From a virus (Duplodnaviria; Heunggongvirae; Uroviricota; Caudoviricetes), in the IMG/VR virus record IMGVR_UViG_3300002220_000285: DNA of 64,000 nt; one strand, written 5' to 3'. Shown here piece after piece: positions 252 to 17,557 of the stretch. The translations under genes were made by a program, and so were the position numbers. The notes under the pieces were generated by a model that had not been told where the DNA came from, did not search any database, and was given only the letters and a program-made list of their open reading frames with translations. Position 1 is the first letter of the stretch, and each line of letters starts with the position of its first letter.

Positions 252-266
252 CCCTAACAGGTTAGG
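252..266. repeat. variant copy of intergenic palindrome (CCTAAC-AG-GTTAGG)
   Basis: Immediately after stop of upstream CDS; 6-bp arms; followed by GGACGGGG-ACAA-CCCCGTCC hairpin. Confidence 0.5.
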
Positions 267-284
267 ACGGGGACAACCCCGTCC
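265..284 (+). terminator. GC-rich hairpin GGACGGGG-ACAA-CCCCGTCC (terminator-like, no U-run)
   Basis: 8-bp perfect stem, 4-nt loop, downstream of CDS ending at 251; member of GGACGGGGAC hairpin family also at 2561 and 31329. Confidence 0.35.
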
Positions 285-526
285 TAGCCTGTCTTACCTT
301 CCGCGAGTGCATTGGATAGCCTTCGGGCTATCTACTGTGTTTGCCGTGCCTGGAAACGAACGGCGGCGCCCTAAAAAGGCCGCTGGGAATCGCCTTCAGT
401 CTGGCTTCACCTGTTCTTTAACAATTTGGCTGATCTGTTCATCTATTTGGGGCCGAGCATCCCCTATAGATTTTGGCCCGGCTCGAGTCAGGGGAAATTT
501 CGTCCTGACTCAGAACCGAACCGAAT

Positions 527-541
527 CCCTAACCGTTAGGG
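527..541. repeat. intergenic palindrome CCCTAACCGTTAGGG
   Basis: Exact 15-mer, 7-bp inverted arms around central C. Confidence 0.6.
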
Positions 542-799
542 AAACAGATGACGGGCAGTTAGCTGCCCGCGGATGCAAAACTACCGTTTAGCGAGCCTCG
601 TGAGAGTCCGGGGCCGCTGTCGAGGAGAGGGCCGGGGACAACCCCGCACCTTACCCCTTCGATTCCTGCAGTAACGGGGAGAACGGCACGGGCCTAAGGC
701 TCGATGCAAGCCGCGGGAATCTACTGTCGGGGGCGATCCTGAGTGACGCTGCAAGCGAAGCCCCAACCCCTGTCCCATGCCCGGATTGGCAACCCGAAG

Positions 800-866
800 G
801 CAGGGGACGGGGATGACAAGCCCTGTGCAAGGTCCCTTGTGCAAGTGAGTCATCCCCGTCCCCTGC
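800..866. repeat. 18-bp perfect inverted repeat GCAGGGGACGGGGATGAC / GTCATCCCCGTCCCCTGC with 31-nt spacer
   Basis: Arms at 800-817 and 849-866 are exact reverse complements; followed by pyrimidine/T-rich tract CTTTGCTCTTACCCCTCTTTATCCTTATTGTT. Confidence 0.7.
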
Positions 867-879
867 CTTTGCTCTTACC

Positions 880-1320
880 CCTCTTTATCCTTATTGTTAA
901 ACGGTAGAAAACTTTAATAAAAAAAGGACTGTTTTTGTTTTTTCGCAAACGCGAAAATCCGCCTTTTCGCAAAAACGAAAACAAGCCGCCAGAAGTTAGA
1001 GGATAACAACTGGTCATTTGTTAAACCTTTTCGTTAAACGCCGAAACCCGCGCCAGTATTGGCTCTCCGCCTTATCGTACTGGAGTAACATCGCCGTTTA
1101 ACAGTTAAACGCCGTTTTTGTCCGCTAATTGCCCAATTAAGAGGCAAATCTGCTGCACTGCAACAGCCGTGCGACCTTGCCTAACCGACTTGAATTCGGT
1201 CTCAAACTCGATTTTGGTTTCACTTCTGGTCCTGTAAGAAACCCTTATCTGCCAGAGACCGTATCAGGGTGAAACGCCTGTTTTCCCTTGTTCGTGATGT
1301 TTAACGAACGCCACTTGAGG
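880..1320. promoter_or_regulatory. AT-rich regulatory island (candidate early promoter/operator cluster or origin) with TTTTCG-N6-8-CGAAAA and CGTTTAAC-A-GTTAAACG inverted repeats
   Basis: Local AT content far above the ~60% GC genome; TTTTCGCAAACGCGAAAA (939-956), TTTTCGCAAAAACGAAAA (964-981), TTTTCGTTAAACGCCGAAA (1028-1046), CGTTTAACAGTTAAACG (1095-1111); no ORF; precedes first early gene. Confidence 0.4.
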
Positions 1321-1330
1321 AGTACCTCCC

Positions 1331-1591
1331 ATGTTCCGCACCGGCCGCACCCGTCGCACCCTCCAGCCCCGCGCCTTCGTTTGCTACTGGGATTTCCAGG
1401 GCACGACTGTCGCCAACCGCACAACGACCCTTGCATCGGCTCGCAAACAAGCCGACCGCCGCCCGATGGGGTACGTGGTGGACACCCGAACCCATCGGAC
1501 CGTCTACCTCTCGGACTCCGCCCGCTCGCGCCTTGCTCGGCGCCTGGGAACCGGGATGGATTCCGTGAACGCCCTGCTGGCCCTTGCCTGA
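1331..1591 (+). CDS. hypothetical early protein (86 aa, basic, Arg-rich)
   Basis: ORF with GAGGAG SD 7 nt upstream; stop abuts palindrome at 1593. Confidence 0.6.
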   Translation: MFRTGRTRRTLQPRAFVCYWDFQGTTVANRTTTLASARKQADRRPMGYVVDTRTHRTVYLSDSARSRLARRLGTGMDSVNALLALA

Positions 1592-1592
1592 C

Positions 1593-1607
1593 CCCTAACC
1601 GTTAGGG
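1593..1607. repeat. intergenic palindrome CCCTAACCGTTAGGG
   Basis: Exact copy, followed by ATTGCCTCAGCGATCCCTGCACTACTTTTGGAGAGTCTC leader. Confidence 0.6.
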
Positions 1608-1648
1608 ATTGCCTCAGCGATCCCTGCACTACTTTTGGAGAGTCTCAA

Positions 1649-1828
1649 ATGGAAGTCGAAACCGCCCTGATGCTGTCCCCGCTGGAGCAGGCCGTGCTGA
1701 AGCAGGCCCTGCTCGTTCAGCGCAGCAACCTCTCCGCCGTCCTGGATTCGCTGGACAGTCGCAACTGCTTCCGCTCCTCGCTGAAACAGGAACTCGAGGT
1801 GGTGCGCGCCTTGCTGGAGCGCGTGTGA
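1649..1828 (+). CDS. hypothetical small protein (59 aa; below ORF-track cutoff)
   Basis: ATG 7 nt after CTACTTTTGGAGAGTCTCAA leader; uninterrupted frame checked codon by codon; TGA overlaps next ATG (TGATG). Confidence 0.55.
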   Translation: MEVETALMLSPLEQAVLKQALLVQRSNLSAVLDSLDSRNCFRSSLKQELEVVRALLERV

Positions 1829-2016
1829 TGGAAGACGCCCCCGTGATGATGCTGCACCTGACGGACGCACAAGCAAACCTGATTGGGTTTGCCTTGCGCG
1901 CCCTGATTCGATCGCACAGCGTGGAAATCTCCAAACTCTCGAATGCCGAGGAGATCAAGGCGCTCGCCCACGAGATCGCCGAAGCCGACGTTCTGCTTCG
2001 GGAGATTTACGAGTGA
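1828..2016 (+). CDS. hypothetical small protein (62 aa)
   Basis: Internal ATG of track ORF 1609..2016 chosen because of TGATG coupling with upstream gene. Confidence 0.55.
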   Translation: MEDAPVMMLHLTDAQANLIGFALRALIRSHSVEISKLSNAEEIKALAHEIAEADVLLREIYE

Positions 2017-2135
2017 TGTCGATGACGACTGCCTACGTTCTCGGTTCGACCTTGTTTCTGGTCTGGCTTCCGATCTACCTCCTGTTCCGGGACGGGGACG
2101 ACTTCGTCCCCTCCGACGACAACGACAACCCCTAA
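2016..2135 (+). CDS. small hydrophobic membrane peptide (39 aa, MSMTTAYVLGSTLFLVWLPIYLLF...)
   Basis: TGATG-coupled start; single predicted TM helix; TAA stop lies inside the palindrome at 2130-2144. Confidence 0.5.
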   Translation: MSMTTAYVLGSTLFLVWLPIYLLFRDGDDFVPSDDNDNP

Positions 2136-2144
2136 CCGTTAGGG
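2130..2144. repeat. intergenic palindrome CCCTAACCGTTAGGG
   Basis: Exact copy containing TAA stop of upstream peptide gene; followed by CTCTACTTCTGGAGAGTCTC leader. Confidence 0.6.
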
Positions 2145-2183
2145 GTCGCAGCGGCGATCCCTGCTCTACTTCTGGAGAGTCTC

Positions 2184-2285
2184 ATGCAGAACCTGGAATT
2201 CGTTTGGCCCCTCATTCTGGTGGTGGGTGGGGTGTTTCTGCTCGCGCTGATCGCGCTGATGGCTGGCGCCAATGGAAGGGACTGA
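2184..2285 (+). CDS. small hydrophobic membrane peptide (33 aa, MQNLEFVWPLILVVGGVFLLALIALMAG...)
   Basis: ATG 6 nt after GGAGAGTCTC; one TM helix; frame verified. Confidence 0.5.
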   Translation: MQNLEFVWPLILVVGGVFLLALIALMAGANGRD

Positions 2286-2287
2286 CA

Positions 2288-2557
2288 ATGGAACTGATTA
2301 CGCTGGCGAAGGTGTTCTGCGCCCTCGTGCGCCTCGCCGCCTCTCAAGCTGGAGTGGATGCTGCGGATACCGACCCGGACGACTACTGCGACTCCAACCT
2401 GGTGATGGCTGCCGCCTTTACCGCGGTCATGGGGCGTCCCCCCGTGCTGCCTTCCGAGGTGGAGGCCGATCCCCACCTTGCCCAGCAGGAGGACTCGGAC
2501 CTCGCCCTGTGGAACGGCGCCTACGGTATGTCTAGGTACTGCCTGTATCAACTGTGA
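2288..2557 (+). CDS. hypothetical protein (89 aa)
   Basis: Internal ATG of track ORF 1943..2557 directly after upstream TGA. Confidence 0.5.
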   Translation: MELITLAKVFCALVRLAASQAGVDAADTDPDDYCDSNLVMAAAFTAVMGRPPVLPSEVEADPHLAQQEDSDLALWNGAYGMSRYCLYQL

Positions 2558-2560
2558 CCC

Positions 2561-2598
2561 GGACGGGGACGACCGCTCACCCGCTGTCGTCCCCGTCC
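2561..2598 (+). terminator. GC-rich hairpin GGACGGGGACGA...TCGTCCCCGTCC (12-bp stem) fused to palindrome
   Basis: Perfect 12-bp inverted arms 2561-2572 / 2587-2598 right after stop of 2288..2557; no U-run. Confidence 0.4.
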
Positions 2599-2611
2599 CT
2601 AACCGTTAGGG
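2597..2611. repeat. intergenic palindrome CCCTAACCGTTAGGG
   Basis: Exact copy. Confidence 0.6.
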
Positions 2612-2625
2612 ATTGCCTCAGCGAT

Positions 2626-2638
2626 CCCTAACCGTTAG
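2626..2638. repeat. degenerate half-copy CCCTAACCGTTAG(cc)
   Basis: Second tandem copy 15 nt after previous one, right arm mutated. Confidence 0.4.
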
Positions 2639-2660
2639 CCCCTTACCTATGGAGTACCTC

Positions 2661-3332
2661 ATGAACGACCTGACCCGCAACATCGCCGCCGCCCGCATCC
2701 TCATGTTCGGGGGCCACCGCGCCGTCTCCAAGGACACGCTGGCCGCGGCGCTGGCGAGCGTCGATCCCGACACCTTCTTCGAGGTCGTCCAGCGGTACGT
2801 GAACGATTACGAAACCAATCAGGAACCCGATCAGGAACCCGTCCCGAAGGAGTCGAATTCCGATTCCGATTGCGGCCCCGTCCCCGTCCCCGCCAGGCGT
2901 TATTCGCTGACGTCCCCGCCGCCGTCCCCGTTCGATGGGGAGGAGGCGCTCAAGGAGTTTAACTTCCGCCTTCAGGATGAGCTTTTGGAGCGGGTGACGG
3001 GGGACAACCTCGCCCAGTCCTATGTCGCCTTGCTGCACGCCAACACGGCTGTCTTCTGCATGGGGGTGCGCGCTCACTTCGCCGATCTTACGGTGACGGA
3101 AGCTCTCGAGCTGTTCAAACTCCTCACCTCCACCTTGCCAGACTGGATGCTGGGGGATTCCGCTTACGCCCCTGCACGCCTCAGTCATGAGGAGCAGGGG
3201 GAATGGGCGAAGTCCTTCCGTAACCTCGAGATTCTGGAGTCGTACATCAGCTTCTTGATGACGACGGAGATCGGTTACTGGAGGAGTATGTCCGATATGC
3301 GCAGCTACTGCAGGTTCTTGTTCGAGGACTGA
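2661..3332 (+). CDS. hypothetical protein (223 aa)
   Basis: ATG preceded by GGAG; track ORF 2613..3332 same frame. Confidence 0.6.
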   Translation: MNDLTRNIAAARILMFGGHRAVSKDTLAAALASVDPDTFFEVVQRYVNDYETNQEPDQEPVPKESNSDSDCGPVPVPARRYSLTSPPPSPFDGEEALKEFNFRLQDELLERVTGDNLAQSYVALLHANTAVFCMGVRAHFADLTVTEALELFKLLTSTLPDWMLGDSAYAPARLSHEEQGEWAKSFRNLEILESYISFLMTTEIGYWRSMSDMRSYCRFLFED

Positions 3333-3358
3333 AGCAGGAGCAGGGGACGCCTGGCGTC

Positions 3359-3373
3359 CCCTAACCGTTAGGG
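3359..3373. repeat. intergenic palindrome CCCTAACCGTTAGGG
   Basis: Exact copy, followed by CCTACTTTTGGAGG leader. Confidence 0.6.
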
Positions 3374-3394
3374 AACCTACTTTTGGAGGTGAAG

Positions 3395-4219
3395 ATGAAA
3401 TACGAACTGATCCCGGAAGGCGACCTGTTCAGGCTGCGCGCCTTGAAAGCCTTTGGGGATGTGCGGGAAGGGGAGCTGGGAGGCCTTGTTCAGGGGCCTG
3501 AGAACCTCTCACAAGAGGGCCTGTGCTGGGTCGCCGGGAACGCTCGCGTCTACGGGGACGCTCGCGTCTACGGGGACGCTCGCATCTACGGGAACGCTCG
3601 GGTCTACGGGGGCGCTGAGGTCTCCGGGAGCGCTCAGGTCTACGGGGGCGCTCGGGTCTTCGGGAACACTGAGGTCTCCGGGAGCGCTCAGGTCTTCGGG
3701 AACACTGAGGTCTCCGGGAGCGCTCGCGTCTCCGGGAGCGCTAGGGTCTACGGGAACGCTCGCGTCTCCGGGAGCGCTCGGGTCTACGGGAGCGCTCGGG
3801 TCTACGGAAACTCTCGAGTCTACGGAAACTCTGACGTCTCCTGGTGCGCTTGCGTCTACGGGGACGCTAAGGTCTACGGGGACGCTCTCGTCAACGGTAA
3901 CGCTTGCGTCTCCGGGGACGCTTGCGTCTCCGTAGACGCTCATGTCTACGGGGACGCTCGGGTCTGCGGGAGCGCTCTGGTCTGCGGAAGAGACTTCCTG
4001 CTAGTCGGCCCGCTCGGCTCGCGCTCCTCCACGCTCACGATTACCCGCAACAGTGAGGGTACTCTGCTGTTTTCCACTGGATGCTTCCACGGCACCCTCG
4101 ACGAATTCGTCGCCGCCGTGAAAGAAGAGCACGAAGGTAACCAACACGAATTCGATTACCTCGCCGCGGTTGATCTGGCTAGGGTTATTTCTAGAAGTTG
4201 GCCCAACCCTAACCGTTAG
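3395..4219 (+). CDS. beta-helical hexapeptide-repeat protein (~25 repeats A-R-V-Y-G-[DNGS]; bactofilin-like V-x-G periodicity)
   Basis: Protein is ~25 consecutive 6-aa repeats (ARVYGD, ARIYGN, AEVSGS, AQVFGN...) flanked by non-repeat N- and C-terminal domains; encoded by 18-bp DNA tandem repeats. Confidence 0.7.
   Translation: MKYELIPEGDLFRLRALKAFGDVREGELGGLVQGPENLSQEGLCWVAGNARVYGDARVYGDARIYGNARVYGGAEVSGSAQVYGGARVFGNTEVSGSAQVFGNTEVSGSARVSGSARVYGNARVSGSARVYGSARVYGNSRVYGNSDVSWCACVYGDAKVYGDALVNGNACVSGDACVSVDAHVYGDARVCGSALVCGRDFLLVGPLGSRSSTLTITRNSEGTLLFSTGCFHGTLDEFVAAVKEEHEGNQHEFDYLAAVDLARVISRSWPNPNR
3532..3990. repeat. 18-bp tandem DNA repeat array (~25 units, consensus GGGGACGCTCGCGTCTAC) incl. 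an exact 36-bp duplication
   Basis: Visible periodicity; exact 36-mer GGGAACACTGAGGTCTCCGGGAGCGCTCAGGTCTTC occurs twice in tandem (~3662-3733). Confidence 0.8.
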
Positions 4220-4220
4220 G
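4207..4220. repeat. intergenic palindrome copy (CCCTAACCGTTAGG, one G short)
   Basis: Contains TAA stop of upstream gene. Confidence 0.5.
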
Positions 4221-4228
4221 AGTTTCTG

Positions 4229-4543
4229 ATGTACCTGTGTGAATTGATCGAGGCGCTCGAGAACGCGCCGCAAGACCTTGTCGTCCCCATCGGGTTTGCT
4301 GAGCCGCACAGCTACCGAGGCTACTACGAGGATTTGGAATTCACCCCTGCCATGAATGTGACCGTGGCCTCGATGCTTGCCCATGCGCGGTCCGCGTTGG
4401 GCGCGACGTTCTACGGCTACAAGGGCGGGGACTACAAGATGCACGAATACAGCCGCTGCTGGATCGGCGAGGCGGGGCTGGTGGAGGACCAATCGATCAG
4501 CCCGCTGCTGCTCAACTTCATGCTGGGCAACCCGGCCCTGTAG
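4229..4543 (+). CDS. hypothetical protein (104 aa)
   Basis: ATG after AGGAG SD. Confidence 0.6.
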   Translation: MYLCELIEALENAPQDLVVPIGFAEPHSYRGYYEDLEFTPAMNVTVASMLAHARSALGATFYGYKGGDYKMHEYSRCWIGEAGLVEDQSISPLLLNFMLGNPAL

Positions 4544-4558
4544 CCCTAACCATTAGGG
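4544..4558. repeat. intergenic palindrome variant CCCTAACCATTAGGG
   Basis: One-base variant. Confidence 0.5.
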
Positions 4559-4599
4559 ATTTGATCTGGACGGCCCCCACTACTTAAGGAGAACCTTTC

Positions 4600-5109: not shown

Positions 5110-5471
5110 TGAAGCCAGAACCGAAGGATGTGATTCGCGCCTTGAACAAGGCTGCGAAGATGATCAGGGACGGGGACGTCATCTACATCTGTACCGCCCT
5201 CGACCATGTTCGCAAGTACCACCCGGAGCTGGCGCCTGCGGCGCTGTATTGCTGCAAGTGGGTCGATTCCATGCTGGGGAAAGGTCATACGCTGGAAATG
5301 TGGCTGAACGCCAATTGCGAGGACTATCGGGAAGCTGTCAGCAGCATCTCAATGCTCCCCTCAAGGTCTCCGCAGCTTCTGAGAGCGACCCAGAGAAGGT
5401 ACGACAAGGTGCAGCGCACCCGCCTTGCATGGATCGCGTGGATGAAGTCTGAGATCAAAACCAACCCCTAA
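5106..5471 (+). CDS. hypothetical protein (121 aa)
   Basis: ATGA overlap with upstream stop; TAA stop inside palindrome. Confidence 0.6.
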   Translation: MMKPEPKDVIRALNKAAKMIRDGDVIYICTALDHVRKYHPELAPAALYCCKWVDSMLGKGHTLEMWLNANCEDYREAVSSISMLPSRSPQLLRATQRRYDKVQRTRLAWIAWMKSEIKTNP

Positions 5472-5480
5472 CCGTTAGGG
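5466..5480. repeat. intergenic palindrome CCCTAACCGTTAGGG fused to GGGCTTCGGCCC tetraloop hairpin (5478-5489)
   Basis: Exact copy; its GGG arm forms the stem of a UUCG-loop hairpin. Confidence 0.6.
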
Positions 5481-5508
5481 CTTCGGCCCGTTACCTGAGG
5501 AGAAGTAC

Positions 5509-5916
5509 ATGCGTTGGTATCAACCTGGCGGCGACTACAGCCGCGATTACTGGCTGATTGATGATTCGGACCAGATCATCGCCCGAGTTCGTCACAACTT
5601 CGAGGGAACTTGGGCCTTCGGGGTTCGGGAGTTCCTGTCCGAGGAAGGCGCGAAGAAGGCGGCGATGCGCGCCAACGGCGCCACCTTGAAAGAGATTCTG
5701 GAAGTGTTCCCCCCGGAGGCTGCGCAGATGCCGGTTGGCGTCTGGCTTCCGTGGTCGGGCGGAAATCAGATTCCGGATGTACCGCCCGATCATCGGGTGG
5801 CGATCAGGTATCGGGGCGGTGAGGAAGGTGAACTCTCCTATGAGGGTGTTCCCCTTATGCGGTGGACCCACACAGAGACGACCGGGGACATCGTCGCCTA
5901 CAAGATCAACCCCTAA
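5509..5916 (+). CDS. hypothetical protein (135 aa)
   Basis: ATG after GAGGAG; TAA stop inside palindrome. Confidence 0.6.
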   Translation: MRWYQPGGDYSRDYWLIDDSDQIIARVRHNFEGTWAFGVREFLSEEGAKKAAMRANGATLKEILEVFPPEAAQMPVGVWLPWSGGNQIPDVPPDHRVAIRYRGGEEGELSYEGVPLMRWTHTETTGDIVAYKINP

Positions 5917-5925
5917 CCGTTAGGG
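5911..5925. repeat. intergenic palindrome CCCTAACCGTTAGGG
   Basis: Exact copy. Confidence 0.6.
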
Positions 5926-5932
5926 AATCAAC

Positions 5933-8742: not shown

Positions 8743-8983
8743 AATCCAAATCGAAACCGTCGCGGTCGTCATTGCTGAAGATGCTGCCCACGCCGTCGAG
8801 ATCGTCTCTGATGAAATGCTCCAGATCGTTTCGGATGCGATCGGCTCGTCCCTCGAGGTCCACTCGGGAACCGAAATCGAAAGCCTCGACGAGCTGCCGA
8901 GAGGCTGGGACCCCATGTGCATTCCTTACGGCGGGGACGGGGACACCCGCCTCAAGGACCTCTTACCCGAAACCCAACCCTAA
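8729..8983 (+). CDS. hypothetical acidic protein (84 aa)
   Basis: ATG after AAGGAGG; internal start of track ORF 8480..8983; TAA in palindrome. Confidence 0.5.
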   Translation: MPIFEIQIETVAVVIAEDAAHAVEIVSDEMLQIVSDAIGSSLEVHSGTEIESLDELPRGWDPMCIPYGGDGDTRLKDLLPETQP

Positions 8984-8992
8984 CCGTTAGGG
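8978..8992. repeat. intergenic palindrome CCCTAACCGTTAGGG
   Basis: Exact copy. Confidence 0.6.
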
Positions 8993-9419: not shown

Positions 9420-9728
9420 ATGAGCCTAGTTCATCGGCAGTTTCTGTCCTACCCACACCACGACTTGCCTGCGATCCCCGTGGGCTGGGTGGACGATTCA
9501 TGGCACAACGACCACTGCCCGAGCTGGATCGTCGGGGAGTACCGCGACGATCTGGTCAAGGTCTACATCGACTGGCCTGAAGTGGAGGCTCGCTTGTCAC
9601 CCAGCGCCATGCGTTATTCAGTCGTGCTCGACTACAACTCTGGTGACGGGGTCTGGGAGGAGTTTGAAACCTTCGCGGAGGTGCGTGACTACCTGAAACA
9701 GTTCGACATCACCCCGTATTACCCCTAA
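9420..9728 (+). CDS. hypothetical protein (102 aa)
   Basis: ATG 2 nt after upstream stop; TAA stop in palindrome variant. Confidence 0.55.
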   Translation: MSLVHRQFLSYPHHDLPAIPVGWVDDSWHNDHCPSWIVGEYRDDLVKVYIDWPEVEARLSPSAMRYSVVLDYNSGDGVWEEFETFAEVRDYLKQFDITPYYP

Positions 9729-9737
9729 CAGTTAGGG
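9723..9737. repeat. intergenic palindrome variant CCCTAACAGTTAGGG
   Basis: Centre base changed. Confidence 0.5.
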
Positions 9738-9750: not shown

Positions 9751-10041
9751 ATGCCCGTGTTTGAGAAGCTGATGATTGTGTCGAGCAGTCACGTGACCAG
9801 CAATACCGCGGAGTGGATGGACACCAAGATCGGCGGAATGACGCTGCCAGGTGCCCCGTTCAAAGAGGAAGGTTGGATCGTCGACCTCTCGGAGTTGGCA
9901 GACAAGTCTGACCTGCCGCACTGCCTTGCCCAGCTTGTCGATATCGCCCGAGCCGGGGATGCCAGCTTCCTGTTCCTGAGTGAGTCAGGGTCCAGGTTGC
10001 CTGAACTGCCCGTGTACACGTGGGGCAAGAACTTTCCCTAA
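9751..10041 (+). CDS. hypothetical protein (96 aa)
   Basis: ATG after CTTCTGGAGATG leader. Confidence 0.55.
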   Translation: MPVFEKLMIVSSSHVTSNTAEWMDTKIGGMTLPGAPFKEEGWIVDLSELADKSDLPHCLAQLVDIARAGDASFLFLSESGSRLPELPVYTWGKNFP

Positions 10042-10050
10042 TGGTTAGGG
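10036..10050. repeat. intergenic palindrome variant CCCTAATGGTTAGGG
   Basis: Still a perfect palindrome with altered centre. Confidence 0.5.
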
Positions 10051-10477: not shown

Positions 10478-10932
10478 AAGTCAAAGTCGCTGAGGCCGAG
10501 GGCATCGTCCTCGACTGGCTGGTGGCGAAGTGCGAAGGGTTGACCCCAACGCTACATAAGAACCCATATGGCTATTGGGTGATGCCAAATATCCCTGGTA
10601 GTTACTCGACCGACTGGTCCCTCGGTGGGCCGATCATCGAGAAAGCCAACATCACCATTATCCGCGCAAACGATGAGTATGAGGTGGACGCAAAGGGGCT
10701 CTCCACCAGCAAGCCTATCCCCTGCTGGTTCGCTGAGTGCAGCCGTTGGACCGGGCACTCCCTGACCACCAGCTACGAAGGTGAGAGCATGGAACCAACC
10801 TTCATGATCGGGGAGTTGGATGGCTGTTACGGAGCCACCCCGCTCATCGCAGCCATGCGCTGCCTTTGTTGTAGTAAACTCGGCGATGTTGTAGACATTC
10901 CGGAGGAACTATGCCAGCAGCAAAGAAGTTAG
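10474..10932 (+). CDS. hypothetical protein (152 aa)
   Basis: ATGA overlap. Confidence 0.55.
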   Translation: MKVKVAEAEGIVLDWLVAKCEGLTPTLHKNPYGYWVMPNIPGSYSTDWSLGGPIIEKANITIIRANDEYEVDAKGLSTSKPIPCWFAECSRWTGHSLTTSYEGESMEPTFMIGELDGCYGATPLIAAMRCLCCSKLGDVVDIPEELCQQQRS

Positions 10933-11597
10933 ACGGTCAGGTGTTTGGACGCTTAACGGTGTTAAACCGCAGTGGGAATCTTGGTGGACGGGTCTTATGG
11001 TCATGCCAGTGCGCGTGTGGAAGATTGCATGAAGCAGTCAGTCATGCGCTTACGTCAGGGCATACAAAGTCCTGCGGCTGCTGGAAAGACGAGCGCAACA
11101 CCTCGACACCCTCAATTCACGGACACGCATCACGAGCTAAAGGTATTAGCCCTACCTACCGGACCTGGCAATGCATGATTACTCGCTGCACTAATGTGTC
11201 TGTTAAGTCATACAAAGACTATGGGGCGCGAGGCATATCTGTATATGCAGGTTGGCTAGTGTTTGAGAACTTTCTTGCCGACATGGGTGAGAAACCATCA
11301 GGCATGTCAATTGAGCGTATGGATAACGAAAAGGGCTACGGGCCGGATAACTGCAAGTGGGCCACCAAGATAGAACAGGCGCGAAATACTCGCGCTAACA
11401 AGTTCATCAGCTACAAAGGAAAACGCATGACACAAGCTGAATTCGCAGAGGTTATTGGACATAACCAATCAACAGTAAGTTATCGACTACGTTCCGGATG
11501 GACTCCTGAGCAAGTTGCTAACACACCTGCAAACCCAGGCAACCGTGTGGCCGACAAGCTGGGTGACGAGGTAGACGTCCCTGAGGAGCTGCTATGA
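10911..11597 (+). CDS. HNH-family homing endonuclease-like protein, paralogue 1 (N-terminal CxCxCG zinc motif, C-terminal ...GYGPDNCKWATKIEQARN)
   Basis: Shares FGRLTV / CxCxCG / YxxYGGRGI / NC[KRQ]WAT motifs with ORFs at 35644, 39595, 41748. Confidence 0.65.
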   Translation: MPAAKKLDGQVFGRLTVLNRSGNLGGRVLWSCQCACGRLHEAVSHALTSGHTKSCGCWKDERNTSTPSIHGHASRAKGISPTYRTWQCMITRCTNVSVKSYKDYGARGISVYAGWLVFENFLADMGEKPSGMSIERMDNEKGYGPDNCKWATKIEQARNTRANKFISYKGKRMTQAEFAEVIGHNQSTVSYRLRSGWTPEQVANTPANPGNRVADKLGDEVDVPEELL

Positions 11598-11872
11598 GTC
11601 CCTATGGAACGCTCACCGTCACCTACACCGCTCAGGTTTTTGTTCCCGGTGAGGTGTACGACGCTTTCTACTTCACTCGAGAATTCGGGCGTTTCGCTCG
11701 GAATGTCGCAAAGGACGCCAACAAATTCGGAGAGCTTCTCGACGAGGAGCCTAACGGGGTTCCTTCAGTCCAGTGGGCTGACTTCTTCGTGCGCCGAGAT
11801 GCTGAGGACTTCATCAACAACTGGCACAACCGCATCCTGCAATGGCAGGAAGAGTTGCGCTCAAGGCCCTAA
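11594..11872 (+). CDS. hypothetical protein (92 aa)
   Basis: ATGA overlap with HNH gene stop. Confidence 0.55.
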   Translation: MSPYGTLTVTYTAQVFVPGEVYDAFYFTREFGRFARNVAKDANKFGELLDEEPNGVPSVQWADFFVRRDAEDFINNWHNRILQWQEELRSRP

Positions 11873-11881
11873 CCGTTAGGG
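11867..11881. repeat. intergenic palindrome CCCTAACCGTTAGGG
   Basis: Exact copy; TAA of upstream gene inside. Confidence 0.6.
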
Positions 11882-11901
11882 CTTCTACTTCTGAGGTAGC
11901 T

Positions 11902-12547: not shown

Positions 12548-12548
12548 C

Positions 12549-12563
12549 CCCTAATCGTTAGGG
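12549..12563. repeat. intergenic palindrome variant CCCTAATCGTTAGGG
   Basis: One-base variant. Confidence 0.5.
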
Positions 12564-12583
12564 ACCTACTTTTGGAGAGGAAC

Positions 12584-12994
12584 ATGAAACCTTCTGGACA
12601 TGAATTCTGGCTGTGCCAGGACTGCGTGCAGGTTGCCGTCAACGGGGATTACAGCGGGATCGACTACTACGCGAAGAACGAAGCCGAAGCGAGTGACATC
12701 GTTCACCGCATTGACAAGGGTCTCGCGGCACTTGGTCCCAACCTTGTCCCGGACTTCTGGGACTCTAGCGAACCCCGCTACAGGTGTGAGGACTGCGACC
12801 ATGAGTTCGACCTGGCTGACGCACAGAGAGTCGAGGATGAGGACGGGTACATCTGTATCGCCTGCCCGGAATGCAAGAGCTTGGACACCAACGAGCGCGA
12901 CTATGGAGAGGAGGAGTTCTCCTACAGGGAATGCGACTGCTGCGGGGAAGACCTTGCTGGTTACCGCTTTCGATTCACAACCCTGATCCCCTAA
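12584..12994 (+). CDS. Cys-rich zinc-ribbon protein (136 aa; 4+ CxxC pairs)
   Basis: CQDC, CEDCDHEF, CIACPEC, CDCCGED motifs; ATG after CCTACTTTTGGAGAGG leader. Confidence 0.55.
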   Translation: MKPSGHEFWLCQDCVQVAVNGDYSGIDYYAKNEAEASDIVHRIDKGLAALGPNLVPDFWDSSEPRYRCEDCDHEFDLADAQRVEDEDGYICIACPECKSLDTNERDYGEEEFSYRECDCCGEDLAGYRFRFTTLIP

Positions 12995-13003
12995 CCGTTA
13001 GGG
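12989..13003. repeat. intergenic palindrome CCCTAACCGTTAGGG
   Basis: Exact copy. Confidence 0.6.
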
Positions 13004-13022
13004 ACTACTTGAGGAGAGCAGT

Positions 13023-13574: not shown

Positions 13575-13575
13575 C

Positions 13576-13863
13576 ATGAAGAAGATGATCGCTGCACTAG
13601 CTGTATTCCTCGCCAGTAGTGCTTCCGCAACCGAGGTGGTTGCATACTGGTTCCTGCCCTCAGGGCATTCGATCTCTATCCATACGGGGCAGCTCCTCTG
13701 CAAGGATGGGAGGAATGACGCAATGGCTACCCACCCTAACGGCTCTGTTCTAACCGGGTGTTGGAGGATTGCAGTCAAGGATGGAAAGAAGCAATTGTTG
13801 ATTCAGTTACACGGAGACGAAGAGAGGGCGTATGACGCCCTGCGTTTCACGATTGTCGAATAA
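13576..13863 (+). CDS. small secreted protein with Sec signal peptide (MKKMIAALAVFLASSASA|TE)
   Basis: N-terminal signal peptide with AxA site; internal start of track ORF 13540..13863 after GGAGGTG. Confidence 0.55.
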   Translation: MKKMIAALAVFLASSASATEVVAYWFLPSGHSISIHTGQLLCKDGRNDAMATHPNGSVLTGCWRIAVKDGKKQLLIQLHGDEERAYDALRFTIVE

Positions 13864-13866
13864 CTG

Positions 13867-13881
13867 CCCTAATCGTTAGGG
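13867..13881. repeat. intergenic palindrome variant CCCTAATCGTTAGGG
   Basis: One-base variant, followed by ATCTACTTTTGGAGAGC leader. Confidence 0.5.
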
Positions 13882-13901
13882 ATCTACTTTTGGAGAGCAA
13901 C

Positions 13902-14138
13902 ATGGCAAAGACCTACAACGGCCACCCCAACTGGAATCACTGGAACGTGAGCCTGTGGATCAACAACGACGAGGGCTTGTACGGCCTCGCTCGTGACTGT
14001 GTTCGGCAGAGCCGACGTAATCGGACCGTGGCAGTCGAGATGATGCTCGACATGCTGCAAGAGATGGGCACGACACACACTCCGGATGGGGCGCCCTACA
14101 GCAAGACGACGATCCGTCACGCGATGAAGGAGATGTGA
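13902..14138 (+). CDS. hypothetical protein (78 aa)
   Basis: ATG 7 nt after GGAGAG. Confidence 0.5.
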   Translation: MAKTYNGHPNWNHWNVSLWINNDEGLYGLARDCVRQSRRNRTVAVEMMLDMLQEMGTTHTPDGAPYSKTTIRHAMKEM

Positions 14139-14139
14139 G

Positions 14140-14424
14140 ATGAGTGAAGTTGTAGGCCCGCTGAAGCTGTTGTCCATCGACGCCTGGCGAGATGGGGAAG
14201 GCGGATGGAACTGGAACAACTTCTTCCTGCTGGAGGAGGGCATCTTCCTGACTGACCCGACACCCCGCAAGGTCCTGAGGTTCCTGCGGAACGCAGGCTT
14301 CCTGACGGACTTCTCGAAAGGTCTGCTGCGTGTGGATTTCTACCCCTCTTACGACGGAACGCTGATCGAGATTCAGCACCGGCATACGTTCGAGCCGGTG
14401 CTGGCCCTGAGCGACATTCACTGA
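14140..14424 (+). CDS. hypothetical protein (94 aa)
   Basis: ATG 2 nt after upstream stop. Confidence 0.5.
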   Translation: MSEVVGPLKLLSIDAWRDGEGGWNWNNFFLLEEGIFLTDPTPRKVLRFLRNAGFLTDFSKGLLRVDFYPSYDGTLIEIQHRHTFEPVLALSDIH

Positions 14425-14448
14425 TCACTCTACTTCTGGAGAGAAAGC

Positions 14449-15096
14449 ATGGACGACATTATTCGTATTGACGAGAATTTCCCGGACTGCACGGCGATCG
14501 TTACCGATGTCTGGCTCGAGCGCGTGCTGGGCGAGCCGCTGGAGCTGAGCGACGAGAACGGGTTCGGGAACTTCGCACCGGGCCAGTGGCTCATGCAGTG
14601 CGTCAACACGATCAAGGGAATGATCGAGGATCACGAAGGGCGCGAATACCGAGTGACTGAGGTGCAGAACACGTACAACAGCGAGAACGACTTCTCGGAT
14701 GACTTCCAGTTCGCGGTGTTCTACCCGGCTGACGCGAGTGACTGGGTTTACGCAGACGATGTCTACGTGGCGGTCGAGCCTCACCTGGGCGGGGACCCCC
14801 GCGGCAACTACGGGAACATTCGGATTTACAAATCTGGGGACCTTGTAGACGGGGGGTTCTTCGATTGGTGCCTCGGGTGGTCGGTCAACTACATCGACGA
14901 CGGGGAATCTGTCCCCGAGGTCGAACGGTTCTCGATCGGCTACGCCAGCTACCCGTTCGCTGAACTTGAAAAGCACCTGATCCCGAGAGACGGTGAGAGC
15001 TGGCCCCGCCTCGAATGGGAGAAGGAGAACGAGCGCATCGTCGCTCTCTACATGGACGGACGAGAAGTCGCCGTGTATCCGTACATTAACGTCTGA
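14449..15096 (+). CDS. hypothetical acidic protein (215 aa)
   Basis: ATG after CTACTTCTGGAGAGAAAGC leader. Confidence 0.55.
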   Translation: MDDIIRIDENFPDCTAIVTDVWLERVLGEPLELSDENGFGNFAPGQWLMQCVNTIKGMIEDHEGREYRVTEVQNTYNSENDFSDDFQFAVFYPADASDWVYADDVYVAVEPHLGGDPRGNYGNIRIYKSGDLVDGGFFDWCLGWSVNYIDDGESVPEVERFSIGYASYPFAELEKHLIPRDGESWPRLEWEKENERIVALYMDGREVAVYPYINV

Positions 15097-15106
15097 GGAA
15101 TCAGTG

Positions 15107-15493
15107 ATGAAGATGACGCCTGAGCAACTGCAAAACGAACTCGCTTACTACACCGGCACCGAGGCCTATCACAAGTTCTCGATCACTCGAGATGTGTGTA
15201 CGGACGGGGTGCTTTTCCTCGCCAAGGAGGCTGGCGCCTTCTGGCTGCTCGAGCAGATCGTGCTCAAGCTGAGGGAGGAGAGCTACGTTGAGAAGGACTA
15301 CTTCGCAGTTGTGAATGTCAAGGTCGAGGATAACAAGGCTCGAATTCAGTTCGAGGACGGGGACGAACACGTTTTCGCAGTCGTCTACGTTGACTACACC
15401 GACTTCCCTCTGCCAGAATGCAAGCTCTTTGCAATCTGGCAGGAAGAGACGAAGCCTGGATCGTGGCTTCTGCTCCTGCCTAGCGAGTACTGA
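15107..15493 (+). CDS. hypothetical protein (128 aa)
   Basis: ATG after GAGGAA; internal start of track ORF 14993..15493. Confidence 0.5.
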   Translation: MKMTPEQLQNELAYYTGTEAYHKFSITRDVCTDGVLFLAKEAGAFWLLEQIVLKLREESYVEKDYFAVVNVKVEDNKARIQFEDGDEHVFAVVYVDYTDFPLPECKLFAIWQEETKPGSWLLLLPSEY

Positions 15494-16049
15494 CCAATGA
15501 GTATGAGCGCACCATAGTCAACGAGTGAATCATCAAGACCGTGAGAACCAGGCTTGCCGAATGAGGCATGAAGACTGTGAGCACCAAGCTTTCCGAACGA
15601 GTCACACCAATCGACAGCTCCAAAAGGAGAGAACGAGTCACAGAACCAGACAGAACCGTGAAGGAAGAACGAGCCGACTCGGCAGATAGCAACACACGCT
15701 GGATGCGAACCCTAGATTCTGAGAGAACCCATATCGGTGAGTGAGACAGCGATACTGATAGAACCCCGGCTGAAGATCGAATCGCCACGCTGAGCAGAAC
15801 CAAACAGCACGAATGAGCCAACTACCCGAGAGAACCAAACGCGAAGCGAACCCTAATGCTTAGGGAACCATCGTGAGTAGTGAGTCAACGTAGACGAGAG
15901 CACCTAGTACAAGGATCGAGACGAGCTGCAAGAAAGGACCACAAAGCCAGATCGAGACAGCGCTGTAGACAGAAACAAAAGACCTGATCGAACCTAATTA
16001 CCGATAGCACCAGACCGGGCGAGTGAATCACCTACTTTTGGAGTAACGA
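15494..16049 (+). other. 556-bp non-coding, purine-rich/T-poor, stop-codon-rich segment with AGAACC iteron-like repeats (candidate ncRNA, origin or partition site)
   Basis: No plus-strand ORF; frequent TGA/TAG in all frames; AGAACC or GAACC about 10 times; GTGAG motifs; contains palindrome variant at 15851. Confidence 0.45.
15851..15865. repeat. intergenic palindrome variant CCCTAATGCTTAGGG
   Basis: 6-bp arms with 3-nt centre inside the non-coding segment. Confidence 0.45.
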
Positions 16050-17060
16050 ATGAGCTTCCCTAGCAACCCCTTCAATACTGCCACCATCCCCTTCGACCTC
16101 GAGCCTGTCCAGCGGCTCACCAAGGACCTCAAAACTGCGGCGCGCACCCTGCACGACGACGAGGCTCGATTCCTGGTCGACTACTACTACATCGCACAAG
16201 AAGACCGGAAGCGTTCCGGCAATCAGGTCCTCGCCCTCGGCGACAACTCGGAACCCAACTCGGTTCTCAAGTGGTTGTTCGACCAGTCGGCGAGCCTTGA
16301 GGATCAAATCAAGAAGGCCTTGGATTCCTACACCCAGTCTCACCCAATGGGCGCCTGGATGCGCAGCATCTACGGCATCGGTCCGGTGATCTCAGCGGGC
16401 CTGCTGGCGAACATCGACATCGAGCAGGCGCCGACCGTGGGTCACATCTGGAGGTTCGCAGGTTTGGACCCCACCGTCATCTGGAAGAAGACAGAGGACG
16501 TTGAGAAGGACGTCGCCGCGGTCAAGGAGATGGACGAGGTTGCCATCATCCGCCTTGCCAAGGAGTACGGACGGAACCCGGAAAACCTGATCAAGCGGTC
16601 CCGCAACGATAAGGGAGAACTTGACCGCAAGGAGCTGAAGCGCGCCCTTGCCATGCGTCCGTGGAACGCCTCGCTCAAAACTTTGCTTTGGAAGGCTGGG
16701 CAAAGCTTTATGAAGTTCTCAGGCCGGGACGAGTGCGTCTACGGCAAGGTCTACCTGAAGCGCAAGGCCTATGAGATCGAGCGCAATGAGGCAGGTGGTA
16801 ATGCTGTGGCGGCTGCGGCCGGGGCCAAACGTGTCGGCAAGTCTACCGATGCCTACGGTCACTACAGCAACGGCAAGCTGCCGCCCGCGCAGATTGATGC
16901 TCGAGCGCGGCGCTATGCGGTCAAGTTGTTCGTCGCTCACCTGCATGACGCCTGGTATCGGATTCACTTCGAGAAGGAGCCGCCGCTGCCGTACCCGATC
17001 GCCATCCTGGGTCACGCCCACCTGATTACCCACGAAGACCTGAACAGGAAAGCTGCATAA
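16050..17060 (+). CDS. helix-hairpin-helix DNA-binding protein (336 aa); HhH segment resembles IS110-family transposase C-terminal region but lacks RuvC/DEDD and SG catalytic motifs
   Basis: SIYGIGPVISAGLLANI...RFAGLDP matches the GIGP..A..L.AEI...F...GL.P HhH pattern; ATG after CCTACTTTTGGAGTAACGA leader. Confidence 0.55.
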   Translation: MSFPSNPFNTATIPFDLEPVQRLTKDLKTAARTLHDDEARFLVDYYYIAQEDRKRSGNQVLALGDNSEPNSVLKWLFDQSASLEDQIKKALDSYTQSHPMGAWMRSIYGIGPVISAGLLANIDIEQAPTVGHIWRFAGLDPTVIWKKTEDVEKDVAAVKEMDEVAIIRLAKEYGRNPENLIKRSRNDKGELDRKELKRALAMRPWNASLKTLLWKAGQSFMKFSGRDECVYGKVYLKRKAYEIERNEAGGNAVAAAAGAKRVGKSTDAYGHYSNGKLPPAQIDARARRYAVKLFVAHLHDAWYRIHFEKEPPLPYPIAILGHAHLITHEDLNRKAA

Positions 17061-17069
17061 GGAGAGAAC

Positions 17070-17249
17070 ATGAAGATTCAAGTCGAGGTTGACTTTGACG
17101 CGATGTTGGACTCCGGGGAGATCACCCCGGACGTCCTGATTGATTCCCTGCTCGGAGACCTGCATTGGCTTAGCGAGAGCATCACGACAAGAGATGTCTT
17201 GCGCCTTGAAGAGGCTGTTGGATACCTTAAGAAGGAGAAGAACCTGTGA
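17070..17249 (+). CDS. hypothetical acidic small protein (59 aa)
   Basis: ATG after AAGGAGAGAAC; frame verified; below track cutoff. Confidence 0.5.
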   Translation: MKIQVEVDFDAMLDSGEITPDVLIDSLLGDLHWLSESITTRDVLRLEEAVGYLKKEKNL

Positions 17250-17548
17250 GCGAACTCGTCTACCTCGGCAAGATCGAGGGTGAAATTTCCGTGCAATTCC
17301 CCAGTGGGGCGCACATGATCGGAGTTAGGGAGGGCAGGAATGCCAGTGTGGTTGCCTACGCTCTGGACGAAGGGGGGGCGAATGTCCTCATGTATTCCGT
17401 TGACAAGGCTCGAGAGCTTCGGGAGGGGGTGGATGAGCTGGTCGGCGCCCTCGCCAAGCTGATCGAGTACATGGACGAAGACTCCCTGATCGAGGAGGAC
17501 TGGGAGGCACTGGAGAATGGGCGGGAGCTTCTGGCGAAGTTTCCCTAA
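17246..17548 (+). CDS. hypothetical protein (100 aa)
   Basis: GTG start overlapping upstream TGA (GTGA). Confidence 0.5.
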   Translation: MSELVYLGKIEGEISVQFPSGAHMIGVREGRNASVVAYALDEGGANVLMYSVDKARELREGVDELVGALAKLIEYMDEDSLIEEDWEALENGRELLAKFP

Positions 17549-17557
17549 CCGTTAGGG
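17543..17557. repeat. intergenic palindrome CCCTAACCGTTAGGG fused to GGGGCTTCGGCCCC UUCG-tetraloop hairpin (17555-17568)
   Basis: Exact copy; last copy in window; hairpin followed by TTTACTTCTGGAGATG leader. Confidence 0.6.

Follow-up and report, generated by a model that had tools for sequence, protein, structure and literature searches.

The stretch of DNA analyzed here (64,000 nt, IMG/VR record IMGVR_UViG_3300002220_000285, hereafter the window) is part of the genome of a siphovirus of ~82 kb and begins ~6.8 kb into an 82,333-nt ENA contig. Up to 46.8 kb, and already before position 1, all genes lie on the + strand, and are followed by genes for a tyrosine integrase, lysis and tail proteins on the - strand. 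The first 17.6 kb encode small, mostly acidic uncharacterised proteins as well as families that are typically met in counter-defence regions (DUF6876, DUF6927, DUF5983, NinX), and it is in this early block that a short palindrome, CCCTAACNGTTAGGG (CCCTAAC-N-GTTAGGG), recurs about 20 times between genes.

A family of palindromes restricted to the early region

The palindrome is a specific, selected element restricted to the early region. It has 12 exact matches in the window where dinucleotide-preserving shuffles gave 0.00, and 19 matches when up to two mismatches are allowed (0.09 expected), all of them on the + strand and between positions 527 and 17557. A variant with a 2-nt centre, CCCTAACAGGTTAGG at 252-266, constitutes the 20th member of the family. 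With exact arms and a relaxed centre (CCTAA-N3/4-TTAGG), 19 sites are found across the 64 kb, every one before position 17600. An earlier reading of the sequence alone (the sequence-only reading) had described ~20 copies confined to the early region, and both parts of this description are borne out by the genome-wide count, as all copies lie within 252-17557 and none elsewhere in the window.

Each copy was placed on a gene map made from codon usage and ribosome-binding sites. According to this map, the copies of the 20-member family occupy non-coding gaps, at most reaching into the final codons of the gene on the 5′ side. The intergenic placement claimed earlier therefore stands, except for the copy at 15851, which lies in a TIGR guide-RNA array (see below) and not at an ordinary junction. 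Every gap of more than 15 nt between 1591 and 17588 has a copy, with the sole exception of 14424-14449, where only the leader described below is present. As already noticed in the sequence-only reading, the TAA inside the motif can be the stop codon of the upstream gene; this is the case for 9 of 19 copies, and the corresponding proteins therefore end in proline. One copy (4207) supplies the upstream stop with the TAG of its 3′ arm; in four further copies this stop lies 3-6 nt 5′ of the motif. At short-spaced junctions the 3′ arm doubles as the Shine-Dalgarno sequence of the downstream gene (4207, 5911 and 8978 in the window, L143:1267/1268 and L143:3844 in the relative presented below). The copies are separated by 29 to ~3000 nt and genes stand between them; this irregular spacing and the intervening genes rule out a CRISPR array, in line with the sequence-only reading.

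No Rfam family was found at the motif copies. A scan for sigma70-like promoters returned two matches in 19 kb where 5.5 were expected, neither of them at a motif; as copies located 7-9 nt from an ATG moreover leave no 5′ untranslated region, a promoter role was rejected. The hairpin promoters of phage N4 are served by a giant virion RNA polymerase (~3,500 aa), with transcription starting ~11 nt from the loop centre. A promoter of this type is at odds with the same copies 7-9 nt from the ATG, which leave neither a 5′ untranslated region nor a Shine-Dalgarno sequence, and no open reading frame (ORF) of the size of such a polymerase is present in the window (the longest has 2033 aa, and the five ORFs of at least 715 aa are otherwise assigned).

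The individual copies, the leader and the fused hairpins

Downstream of most copies lies a leader, TACTTNTGGAGA, with 33 matches at up to two mismatches (10.6 expected), which keeps a fixed distance to the ATG and has the palindrome 0-25 nt on its 5′ side at at least 13 genes. The sequence-only reading had seen this leader follow the copies, and this holds for most of them. Yet the leader is no part of a motif unit, since it also precedes motif-free genes (14431, 16033, 19210, 19962, 20719, 23093, 24800), and therefore represents an independent, general translation-initiation region. The form (C)TACTT(T/C)TGGAGA-N4-6-ATG is seen at ~20 gene starts (e.g., 1630, 12567, 13885, 20719), well beyond the motif region. 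The leader resembles the "epsilon" enhancer plus Shine-Dalgarno sequence of T7 gene 10.

All members of the family are on the + strand. The variant CCCTAACAGGTTAGG (252-266) immediately follows the TGA that ends the first + strand gene and contributes its 3′ half to a 16-bp hairpin at 257-292, and the exact copy at 527-541 lies, without a leader, in a ~1-kb non-coding regulatory region 5′ of the early genes. The exact copy at 1593-1607 starts 1 nt past the TGA of the first early gene (1331-1591) and is composite, as its 3′ arm forms a 10-bp hairpin (1603-1626) with a downstream CCCTG ahead of the leader. The next exact copy (2130-2144), whose TAA is the stop of gene 2016-2135, is likewise a composite with a 3′ hairpin followed by the leader. 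A tandem pair at 2597-2640, made of an exact copy (2597-2611) and a degenerate one (CCCTAACCGTTAGCC, 2626-2640), flanks a small hairpin, and the whole folds as one long hairpin. At the exact copy 3359-3373 a GC hairpin on the 5′ side (3341-3359) includes the first C of the motif, and the leader follows 4 nt on. The variant CCCTAACCGTTAGGA at 4207-4221 provides the upstream stop with the TAG of its 3′ arm and, with AGGAG, the Shine-Dalgarno sequence of the next gene, whose ATG is 7 nt on, while the variant CCCTAACCATTAGGG (4544-4558) directly follows a TAG stop and has the leader 20 nt 3′. The motif TAA is the upstream stop at three successive exact copies: at 5466-5480, where the GGG of the 3′ arm is common to a GGGC-UUCG-GCCC hairpin; at 5911-5925, with the ATG 7 nt 3′ and no separate leader; and at 8978-8992, where the 3′ arm plus AGGA serves as Shine-Dalgarno sequence of a kinase gene. 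The same use of the TAA, with the leader on the 3′ side, is found at 9723-9737 (centre A), 10036-10050 (variant CCCTAATGGTTAGGG), 11867-11881 (exact), 12989-13003 (exact, leader immediately 3′) and 17543-17557 (exact), the last of the family, whose 3′ GGG is common to a terminator-like GGGGC-UUCG-GCCCC hairpin. Two copies of the variant CCCTAATCGTTAGGG, both with the leader 3′, lie 1 nt past a TGA stop (12549-12563) and 3 nt past a TAA stop (13867-13881). The atypical copy with perfect arms (CCCTAATGCTTAGGG, 15851-15865) is situated inside the TIGR array, in register with it. The fusions to hairpins described by the sequence-only reading were thereby recovered, with UUCG hairpins at 5466 and 17543 and a GC hairpin 5′ of 2597.

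GC hairpins that are not tied to the motif fill the same slot 5′ of the leader at other junctions of the relative and in the middle region of the window, and one of them takes the motif's place at the junction of the relative orthologous to 12549. A 9-mer, GACGGGGAC, has 17 copies in the window against ~1 expected (e.g., 266, 2091, 2562, 8936, 15356, 23677, 31330). A number of these form one side of a GC hairpin and others fall within coding regions; the majority point in the direction of transcription, and several are no more than 45 nt away from a palindrome copy.

Predicted folding of the motif as RNA

As a free RNA hairpin the motif is weak (-5.0 kcal/mol with 6 bp, -1.7 with 5 bp). The pairing probability predicted in the native sense context is bimodal, being ~0.9 in ~20 of 34 copies and ~0 in ~10 of 34. 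In the non-forming copies (252, 1593, 2130, 2597/2626, 3359, 17543) either one of the arms is overlapped by a stronger GC hairpin or the 3′ arm pairs with a downstream partial copy. Given the weak free hairpin and these ~10 copies out-competed by GC hairpins, structure alone cannot be the function. A terminator scan flagged the copies 4544, 12549 and 13867 in addition to the fused hairpins 1603 and 17554, and terminator-like matches are overall in modest excess (25 versus 15.2 in shuffled sequence, standard deviation 5.1). An intrinsic terminator was nevertheless rejected, as the stem reaches only -5 kcal/mol and closes with an A-U pair, and Us occur only 5-8 nt 3′, without an adjoining U-run. 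An RNA hairpin for processing or insulation, as proposed in the sequence-only reading, is kept among the two leading models discussed below, but a stand-alone structural role is not, considering its ~-5 kcal/mol.

Distribution and conservation of the motif

The sequence-only reading had suggested counting the 15-mer in related phages and searching phage databases for it. The count gave ~19 copies in one relative, and the database search single matches only, the exact 15-mer being multicopy in no IMG/VR contig. A scan covering the genomes of 185,579 bacterial and archaeal species gave scattered single matches among the 120 matches listed (one contig had two), and single matches in genomes are at chance level for the ~600 Gb concerned. 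The 15-mer was not found in the searchable literature. A host REP element was rejected on the basis of these chance-level single matches among the matches listed, and so was the term "REP-like" of the sequence-only reading in the sense of a host-type repeat, the scans having found no RAYT-like gene either. Nine of the 120 exact matches listed are in metagenome-assembled genomes of Streptosporangiaceae (L027, L044, L047, L051, L053, L054, L059, L066, L077), one of which has two copies; these may correspond to an unrelated repeat or a conserved gene segment there.

A search of a metagenome collection for the motif plus leader pattern revealed one other carrier, a relative in assembly QXGG01. Its polymerase, SPFH and Tas proteins share 80-85% identity with their counterparts in the window, and its ~19 copies are distributed over two contigs, five in L143 and 14 in L156 (L156rc designates the reverse complement of the latter). 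Orthologous sites are 1593/L156rc:1233, 9723/L156rc:3741 (with centre C in the relative), 8978/L143:1267 (where the centre is 2 nt), 12989/L143:3250, 17543/L143:6532 and 11867/L156rc:7923. The order of the early genes differs between the two phages, so that orthologues are found in different neighbourhoods, and the motif is also borne by genes present in just one of them. Over the 39 copies of both phages, the inner arms CCTAA and TTAGG show not a single change and no compensatory substitution, while the outermost pair is C-G in only 23. The centres are CCG (22 copies), CCCG (5), TCG (2), CCGG (2) and eight others found once each (including CAG, TGG and CGG); in the copy L156rc 1233 the centre is inverted. 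In both phages, copies in tandem are found at the array's head (L156rc 132 and 150; window 2597 and 2626).

A motif is present in at least one genome at 9 of 12 synteny breakpoints, where ~75% would be expected by chance because half of all junctions bear a motif, and several indel boundaries fall at a motif, e.g., at 4544 and 17543. Ten strain-level contigs from different samples are 99-100% identical to the window and colinear, without cassette polymorphism, and none of their 19 single-nucleotide polymorphisms lies in a motif (0.3 expected). Variants as close as these carry little information on mosaicism.

A TIGR-Tas system within the motif region

The ORF at 16050-17060 encodes a Tas protein of 336 aa (NF052498, E 3e-56, 190.7 bits versus a cutoff of 100). 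An IS110/IS1111 element inserting into the palindromes was considered and rejected, as the "transposase" in question is this very protein, which looked IS110-like at first. The purine-rich non-coding stretch 5′ of the tas gene (~15506-16030) is its guide array, with autocorrelation peaks at 18, 36 and 72 nt. Ten regular 36-nt units extend from 15506 to ~15846, and degenerate units continue to ~16030; each 36-nt unit is composed of two alternating 9-nt repeats and two 9-nt spacers, in agreement with the published dual-repeat architecture of TIGR arrays (PMC12045711). Gene and array together make up a complete TIGR-Tas system borne by the phage. The palindrome copy at 15851 is made up of the loop-repeat end CCC, the spacer TAATGCTTA and the next repeat GGGAACCA. 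In the relative, the system occupies L143 5107-6358 with ~5 units; the spacers CCACGCTGA and AACAGCACG are common to both phages, and its array has no motif copy inside. Spacers A and B are expected to be complementary to opposite strands of adjacent 9-nt segments separated by a gap of 0-2 (PMC12045711). Under this dual-strand rule, no spacer pair fits the motif, the leader or anything else in the two phages better than by chance, the best fit having three mismatches in 18 and the counts being near those in shuffled sequence. Tas homologues are widespread: uncultured contigs gave more than 4,500 matches at 55-63% identity, frequently preceded by a lengthy non-coding stretch.

Two distant Tas-carrying contigs have lineage palindromes of their own. 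In L149, GGACAtt-TCCCGwGCCACGGGA-ttTGTCC is found at 116, 799, 1292, 2499, 4243, 7164, 8999 and 13612, in both orientations and partly inside genes. In L151, GTGCAATCAATTGCAC is found at 614, 2556, 6068, 7920 and 11178; some copies overlap sigma70-like -35/-10 hexamers and one adjoins an HTH_Crp_2 gene. Such a palindrome is no universal trait of Tas-carrying contigs, as none was found in L147, L152, L157 and L159, and L158 has merely low-complexity GCGCGC arms.

Candidate trans-acting factors

The first early gene (1331-1591, + strand) encodes a protein of 86 aa with a pI of 11.7 and 17% arginine, unlike nearly all other early proteins, which are acidic. Its Arg-rich N-terminus MFRTGRTRRTLQPR is kept in the orthologue of the relative (MLRFARSTRRRTSAPR, L156 reverse complement 965-1237). 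When 1.84 billion representative proteins were searched exhaustively, the family comprised only the protein itself and this orthologue. As the family is thus found only in the two motif-bearing phages, protein and motif have equally narrow distributions. The AlphaFold prediction (single sequence, pLDDT 69) has the Arg-rich tail disordered and contains a small alpha/beta domain. The C-terminus gave the impression of a ribbon-helix-helix fold, for which searches yielded no support, and no similarity to N or to any RNA-binding fold was detectable. No DNA- or RNA-binding domain (including HTH, RHH and ParB) was found either in scans of ~50 proteins with Pfam, PHROGs and NCBIfam. The 86-aa protein is a candidate for the factor that would read the motif, and an unannotated 221-aa protein encoded just 5′ of position 252, ahead of the palindromes, might be another candidate regulator.

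Genomic context

No relative at the DNA level was found among GenBank phages or in IMG/VR, and patterns of the polymerase protein gave none there either. The DNA polymerase, of family A, shares ~27% identity with those of the Pseudomonas phages PMBT3 and Lana and falls in a large clade of uncultured phages, the longest contigs among the matches listed being ~80-88 kb. The SPFH/Band-7 protein shows 66-68% identity to counterparts in Ideonella, Roseateles and Methylibium; its gene was probably captured from a host, and judging from this similarity the host probably belongs to the Burkholderiales. The genes for ArdA (18703-19161), a sponge of the Acb2/Tad1 type (21104-21373) and the SPFH protein (21913-22728) lie just 3′ of the motif block. 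The sole tyrosine recombinase (46955-48064) is Xer-like and 30 kb away from the block, and scores 33.8 bits on TIGR02249, for which the cutoff is 265.

The region 880-1330, 5′ of the first early gene, is non-coding and fairly AT-rich. It contains repeated and inverted GTTAAACG(CCG) boxes and direct repeats TTTTCGCAAA(A)ACG(C)GAAAA, and a perfect 21-bp inverted repeat (797-817/849-869) lies on its 5′ side; it is probably an early promoter/operator region or an origin. An HNH homing endonuclease gene (10911-11597; phrog_374, E 2e-64) is found in the early block; it scores low as coding sequence, and its gene call is not the same in some strain contigs. In gene 3395-4219, 25 tandem copies of an 18-nt unit (3535-3987) encode YdcK-type beta-solenoid (bactofilin-like) repeats, and the copy number of this unit is the chief difference among strain variants. 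A tRNA-Arg(TCT) is located at 31361-31436, with a strong GGACGGGGAC hairpin terminator at 31328-31355 on its 5′ side.

Possible functions of the palindromes

We tentatively propose, with somewhat less than even confidence, that the motif is a double-stranded DNA operator for a phage-specific oligomeric regulator that silences the early block. The site would consist of the invariant inverted half-sites CCTAA/TTAGG (usually CCCTAAC/GTTAGGG) around a variable centre of 3-4 nt, and such sites would sit in the minimal stop-to-start gaps at almost every gene-group junction of a ~17-kb block of anti-defence and host-takeover genes. A phage-encoded regulator would bind the ~20 sites along one long co-oriented transcription unit, thereby dampening or blocking transcription of the entire block, be it as an early shut-off after infection or as silencing in the lysogen; given that the phage has an integrase, a lysogen would need to have the early block silenced. 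The invariant arms, the free centre and the weakness of the hairpin together argue for a trans-acting factor that reads the sequence, and the lineage restriction of the motif argues for a phage-encoded factor. The sequence-only reading had suggested a binding site for a dimeric phage or host factor; the invariance of the arms speaks for the binding site, while the restriction to one lineage makes a host factor unlikely. From these patterns we infer that a protein would bind, that DNA rather than RNA would be its substrate, which protein this might be, and that the outcome would be repressive. Operators bound by proteins on DNA typically combine fixed half-sites with an unconstrained centre, whereas RNA hairpins bound by proteins tend to show the opposite; copies in tandem are usual for cooperative operators. 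The validated precedents for short multicopy palindromes of phages and plasmids that we know of are all DNA operators. By analogy, the palindromes of L149 and L151, with their two orientations and their overlap with promoter hexamers, display an operator-like behaviour.

Several observations weigh against an operator and lead to the second of the two leading models that computation alone leaves. The geometry of the half-sites is not fixed, the centre having 3 nt in ~30 copies and 4 nt in 9, and the orthologous pair 8978/L143:1267 differs by one inserted centre base; a 1-nt change in spacing is seldom accepted by rigid dimeric DNA binders but can be accommodated by a hairpin loop. On the coding strand the centre favours C (27 C or CC versus 1 G or GG), a bias that common descent could explain without selection, and the copies have no associated sigma70-like promoter. 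Mean pairing is higher in the native sense context (0.53) than with shuffled flanks (0.32, Wilcoxon p ~0.0008) or on the antisense strand (0.43, p ~0.02). Generic hairpins occupying the motif's slot 5′ of the U-rich leader hint at a role at the RNA level, and the stop-codon coupling and the use of the 3′ arm as Shine-Dalgarno sequence fit a translation-level logic. The alternative, which we rate only a little lower, is a hairpin of 5-6 bp with a 3-4-nt loop, formed by the polycistronic early transcript and recognised by an RNA-binding protein of the phage. By analogy with lambda N and boxB, the most evident candidate would be the Arg-rich 86-aa first early protein. Its binding would keep the terminator-like hairpins that overlap the motif at composite sites from folding (antitermination), and could also define processing or stabilisation points or gate translation of the next gene; at short-spaced copies, the hairpin would hide the Shine-Dalgarno sequence until a ribosome ending at the in-motif stop opens it (translational coupling). 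Beyond the tolerance of loop length, the preferential sense folding and the generic hairpins, this model can draw on a stop codon inside the motif or at most 7 nt 5′ of it in ~30 of 37 copies scored, and on the overlap with the terminator-like hairpins 1603-1626 and 17554-17569, which resembles an antiterminator/terminator geometry. It also accommodates a first early protein that is uniquely basic, has a conserved, predicted-disordered Arg-rich tail and occurs only in motif-bearing phages, although this protein lacks detectable similarity to N or RNA-binding folds. The pattern of conservation is harder to reconcile with it, as the 39 copies keep the stem invariant, with no compensatory change, and leave the loop free; protein recognition of RNA hairpins in MS2, PP7 and boxB is mostly the reverse. 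The hairpin is moreover weak, with ~30% of copies predicted unformed, antitermination of the lambda type needs 1-2 sites and not 20, the centre of L156rc 1233 is inverted, and the analogous palindromes of L149 come in both orientations.

The mosaicism of the early region raises the question of a recombination junction comparable to PeSLs, in which motif and leader, together ~30-40 nt and near-identical at many junctions, would offer shared homology for co-infecting relatives to exchange, insert or delete cassettes, and conservation would reflect spread with the cassettes, without a biochemical function of its own. The early region is indeed strongly mosaic, lineage-specific genes also bear the motif, indel boundaries such as those at 4544 and 17543 coincide with it, and there are precedents in the PeSLs of T4-like phages (PMC2839356, PMC4122927) and in deletions between the repeats of Cluster O phages (PMC4351075). 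Yet the motif stands at breakpoints about as often as chance predicts, the ten strain contigs show no exchange of cassettes, the 15-nt core is short for homologous exchange, and neutral scars would not hold the arms invariant while centre and flanks drift, all of which makes this explanation improbable. We attach a similarly small probability to a passive structural RNA without a dedicated factor, i.e., a weak terminator or pause, a 3′-end stabiliser, or an insulator keeping the leader unstructured. Its position between stop codon and U-rich leader, the copies and fused hairpins flagged by the terminator scan and the ordinary GC hairpins in the same slot elsewhere would suit such a role, but the excess of terminator-like matches is modest, the stem has the low energy, the A-U closing pair and the missing U-run described above, and selection on structure only would lead one to expect covariation and drift, whereas the 39 stems from two diverged phages are identical. 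Very improbable, in our view, are minimal attC-like hairpins reduced to R boxes, which as folded single strands would serve a recombinase other than IntI and turn the block into an integron-like cassette array. They would explain the R-box-like arms (YYYAAC/GTTRRR) and the location at 3′ ends of co-oriented ORFs overlapping their stops, as well as the purine-rich centre of the bottom strand and a mosaicism between relatives that keeps the site invariant. A true integron attC was rejected, as there is no IntI (the phage integrase being generic, Xer-like and distant), many "cassettes" are multi-gene and the strains lack cassette polymorphism. Finally, tigRNAs might guide Tas to the palindromes, making these a target or by-product of the TIGR-Tas system. 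The tas gene and the 36-nt-periodic array sit within the motif-bearing region, a copy with perfect arms lies in register within that array, and nuclease-dead Tas proteins can repress transcription (bioRxiv 10.64898/2026.09.09.750476). However, no spacer pair fits the motif under the dual-strand rule, the array of the relative has no in-array copy, and Tas homologues are very widespread in contigs without the motif, so that this last possibility is hardly credible.

Comparison with known systems

The closest described system is SAS/ESAS, followed by the Cluster O palindromes, the stoperators and the KorB operators. In Cluster K mycobacteriophages, a start-associated sequence (SAS) that includes the ribosome-binding site is accompanied by an inverted repeat at a subset of genes, with a function left unresolved (PMC3203893). 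Likewise, a start-associated sequence, here TACTTNTGGAGA, has an inverted repeat directly 5′ at a subset of genes in the window, and in both cases the elements are found in the non-structural half only and almost always in one orientation, are absent from the host, stand beside unrelated genes and have a lineage-specific consensus. The arms of ESAS, however, are 17 bp long, imperfect and 4-13 bp apart, whereas those described here have 6-7 bp, are essentially perfect and lie 1-2 nt apart; the Cluster K elements form the sequence family GGGATAGGAGCCC, to which the window motif has no sequence similarity; and the motif often holds the upstream stop, sometimes the downstream Shine-Dalgarno sequence, in a phage whose host is of Gram-negative type. 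The Cluster O phages have a 17-bp palindrome (TGTTCGG-NNN-CCGAACA) in more than 30 copies, between which recombination was seen, again with an unresolved function (PMC4351075). This 7-3-7 palindrome resembles ours in its invariant arms, variable centre and intergenic enrichment in the non-structural region, but about one third of its copies lie inside genes, and they are spread genome-wide without a link to stops or starts, while the copies here are intergenic and confined to the early block.

Multi-operator systems such as the stoperators of Cluster A mycobacteriophages (L5 gp71; cited in PMC3203893 and PMC4351075), the CIR of phiC31, the C1 operators of P1 and OB of RK2 KorB comprise 10 to more than 30 copies of 13-17-bp sites, located in short intergenic gaps along long operons and often touching start or stop codons, and allow one regulator to silence many units; the KorB site is a 6-1-6 palindrome with a free centre. 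The many intergenic copies of one short, element-specific site are a common feature, and the geometry of the KorB site is nearly the same as that of the window motif. Stoperators are asymmetric and genome-wide, in contrast to the symmetric motif of the early block, and no recognisable repressor, ParB or KorB-like protein is found here, where the half-site spacing moreover varies by 1 bp. The PeSLs of T4-like phages combine a sigma70 early promoter with a terminator-like stem-loop (PMC2839356, PMC4122927). They too are conserved composite elements between small early genes in hyperplastic regions, linked to gene shuffling; in the window, no promoter was detected, the stem is weak and of mixed AT/GC composition, and an enrichment at breakpoints is not demonstrable. 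The nut system of lambda has two sites, with a 15-nt boxB hairpin whose loop carries the specificity for N. A 15-nt hairpin just past a stop in the early transcript and a small, very basic first early protein with Arg-rich N-terminus are shared with it, but here there are ~20 sites with free loops and invariant stems, no boxA and no homology to N.

Sites of the attC type are defined by L boxes, extrahelical bases, an unpaired central spacer and a variable terminal structure, over 57-141 bp (PMC5027507). The palindromes come near the R-box consensus (RYYYAAC/GTTRRRY) with their arms, YCCTAAC/GTTAGGR fitting it at 6 of 7 positions with the outermost position of the wrong class in most copies (PMC5027507), and also resemble attC in lying at the 3′ end of co-oriented promoterless ORFs, often over the stop, in having a centre rich in purines on the bottom strand, and in belonging to an array that is mosaic and cassette-like. 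They differ in being 15 bp long and near-perfect, without L box, extrahelical bases, central spacer or terminal structure. REP/BIME elements, in turn, occur in hundreds of host copies, as opposed to the scattered single genome matches among the 120 listed; the Pfam and PHROG scans of the window found no RAYT (TnpA-REP) gene, and no conserved 5′ flank of the GTAG type was found.

Phage-specific repeats punctuating non-structural genes are known mainly from actinobacteriophages, and apart from the stoperators their mechanisms are open. The same design is seen here in an unrelated, uncultured siphovirus, probably of Burkholderiales, and the case is unusually clean, with arms that are invariant across two phages with reshuffled early genes and a motif that stays within a block where anti-defence genes abound (ArdA, Acb2/Tad1, TIGR-Tas). 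Should a single factor read every site, they would constitute a master switch for the counter-defence arsenal and a compact, portable regulatory part, and the orphan Arg-rich protein that shares the narrow distribution of the motif would offer a concrete protein/site pair for in vitro work without a cultured host. Compared with the systems above, the design is known, the sequence, dimensions and host group differ, and the embedded stop codon and Shine-Dalgarno sequence are additions to it.

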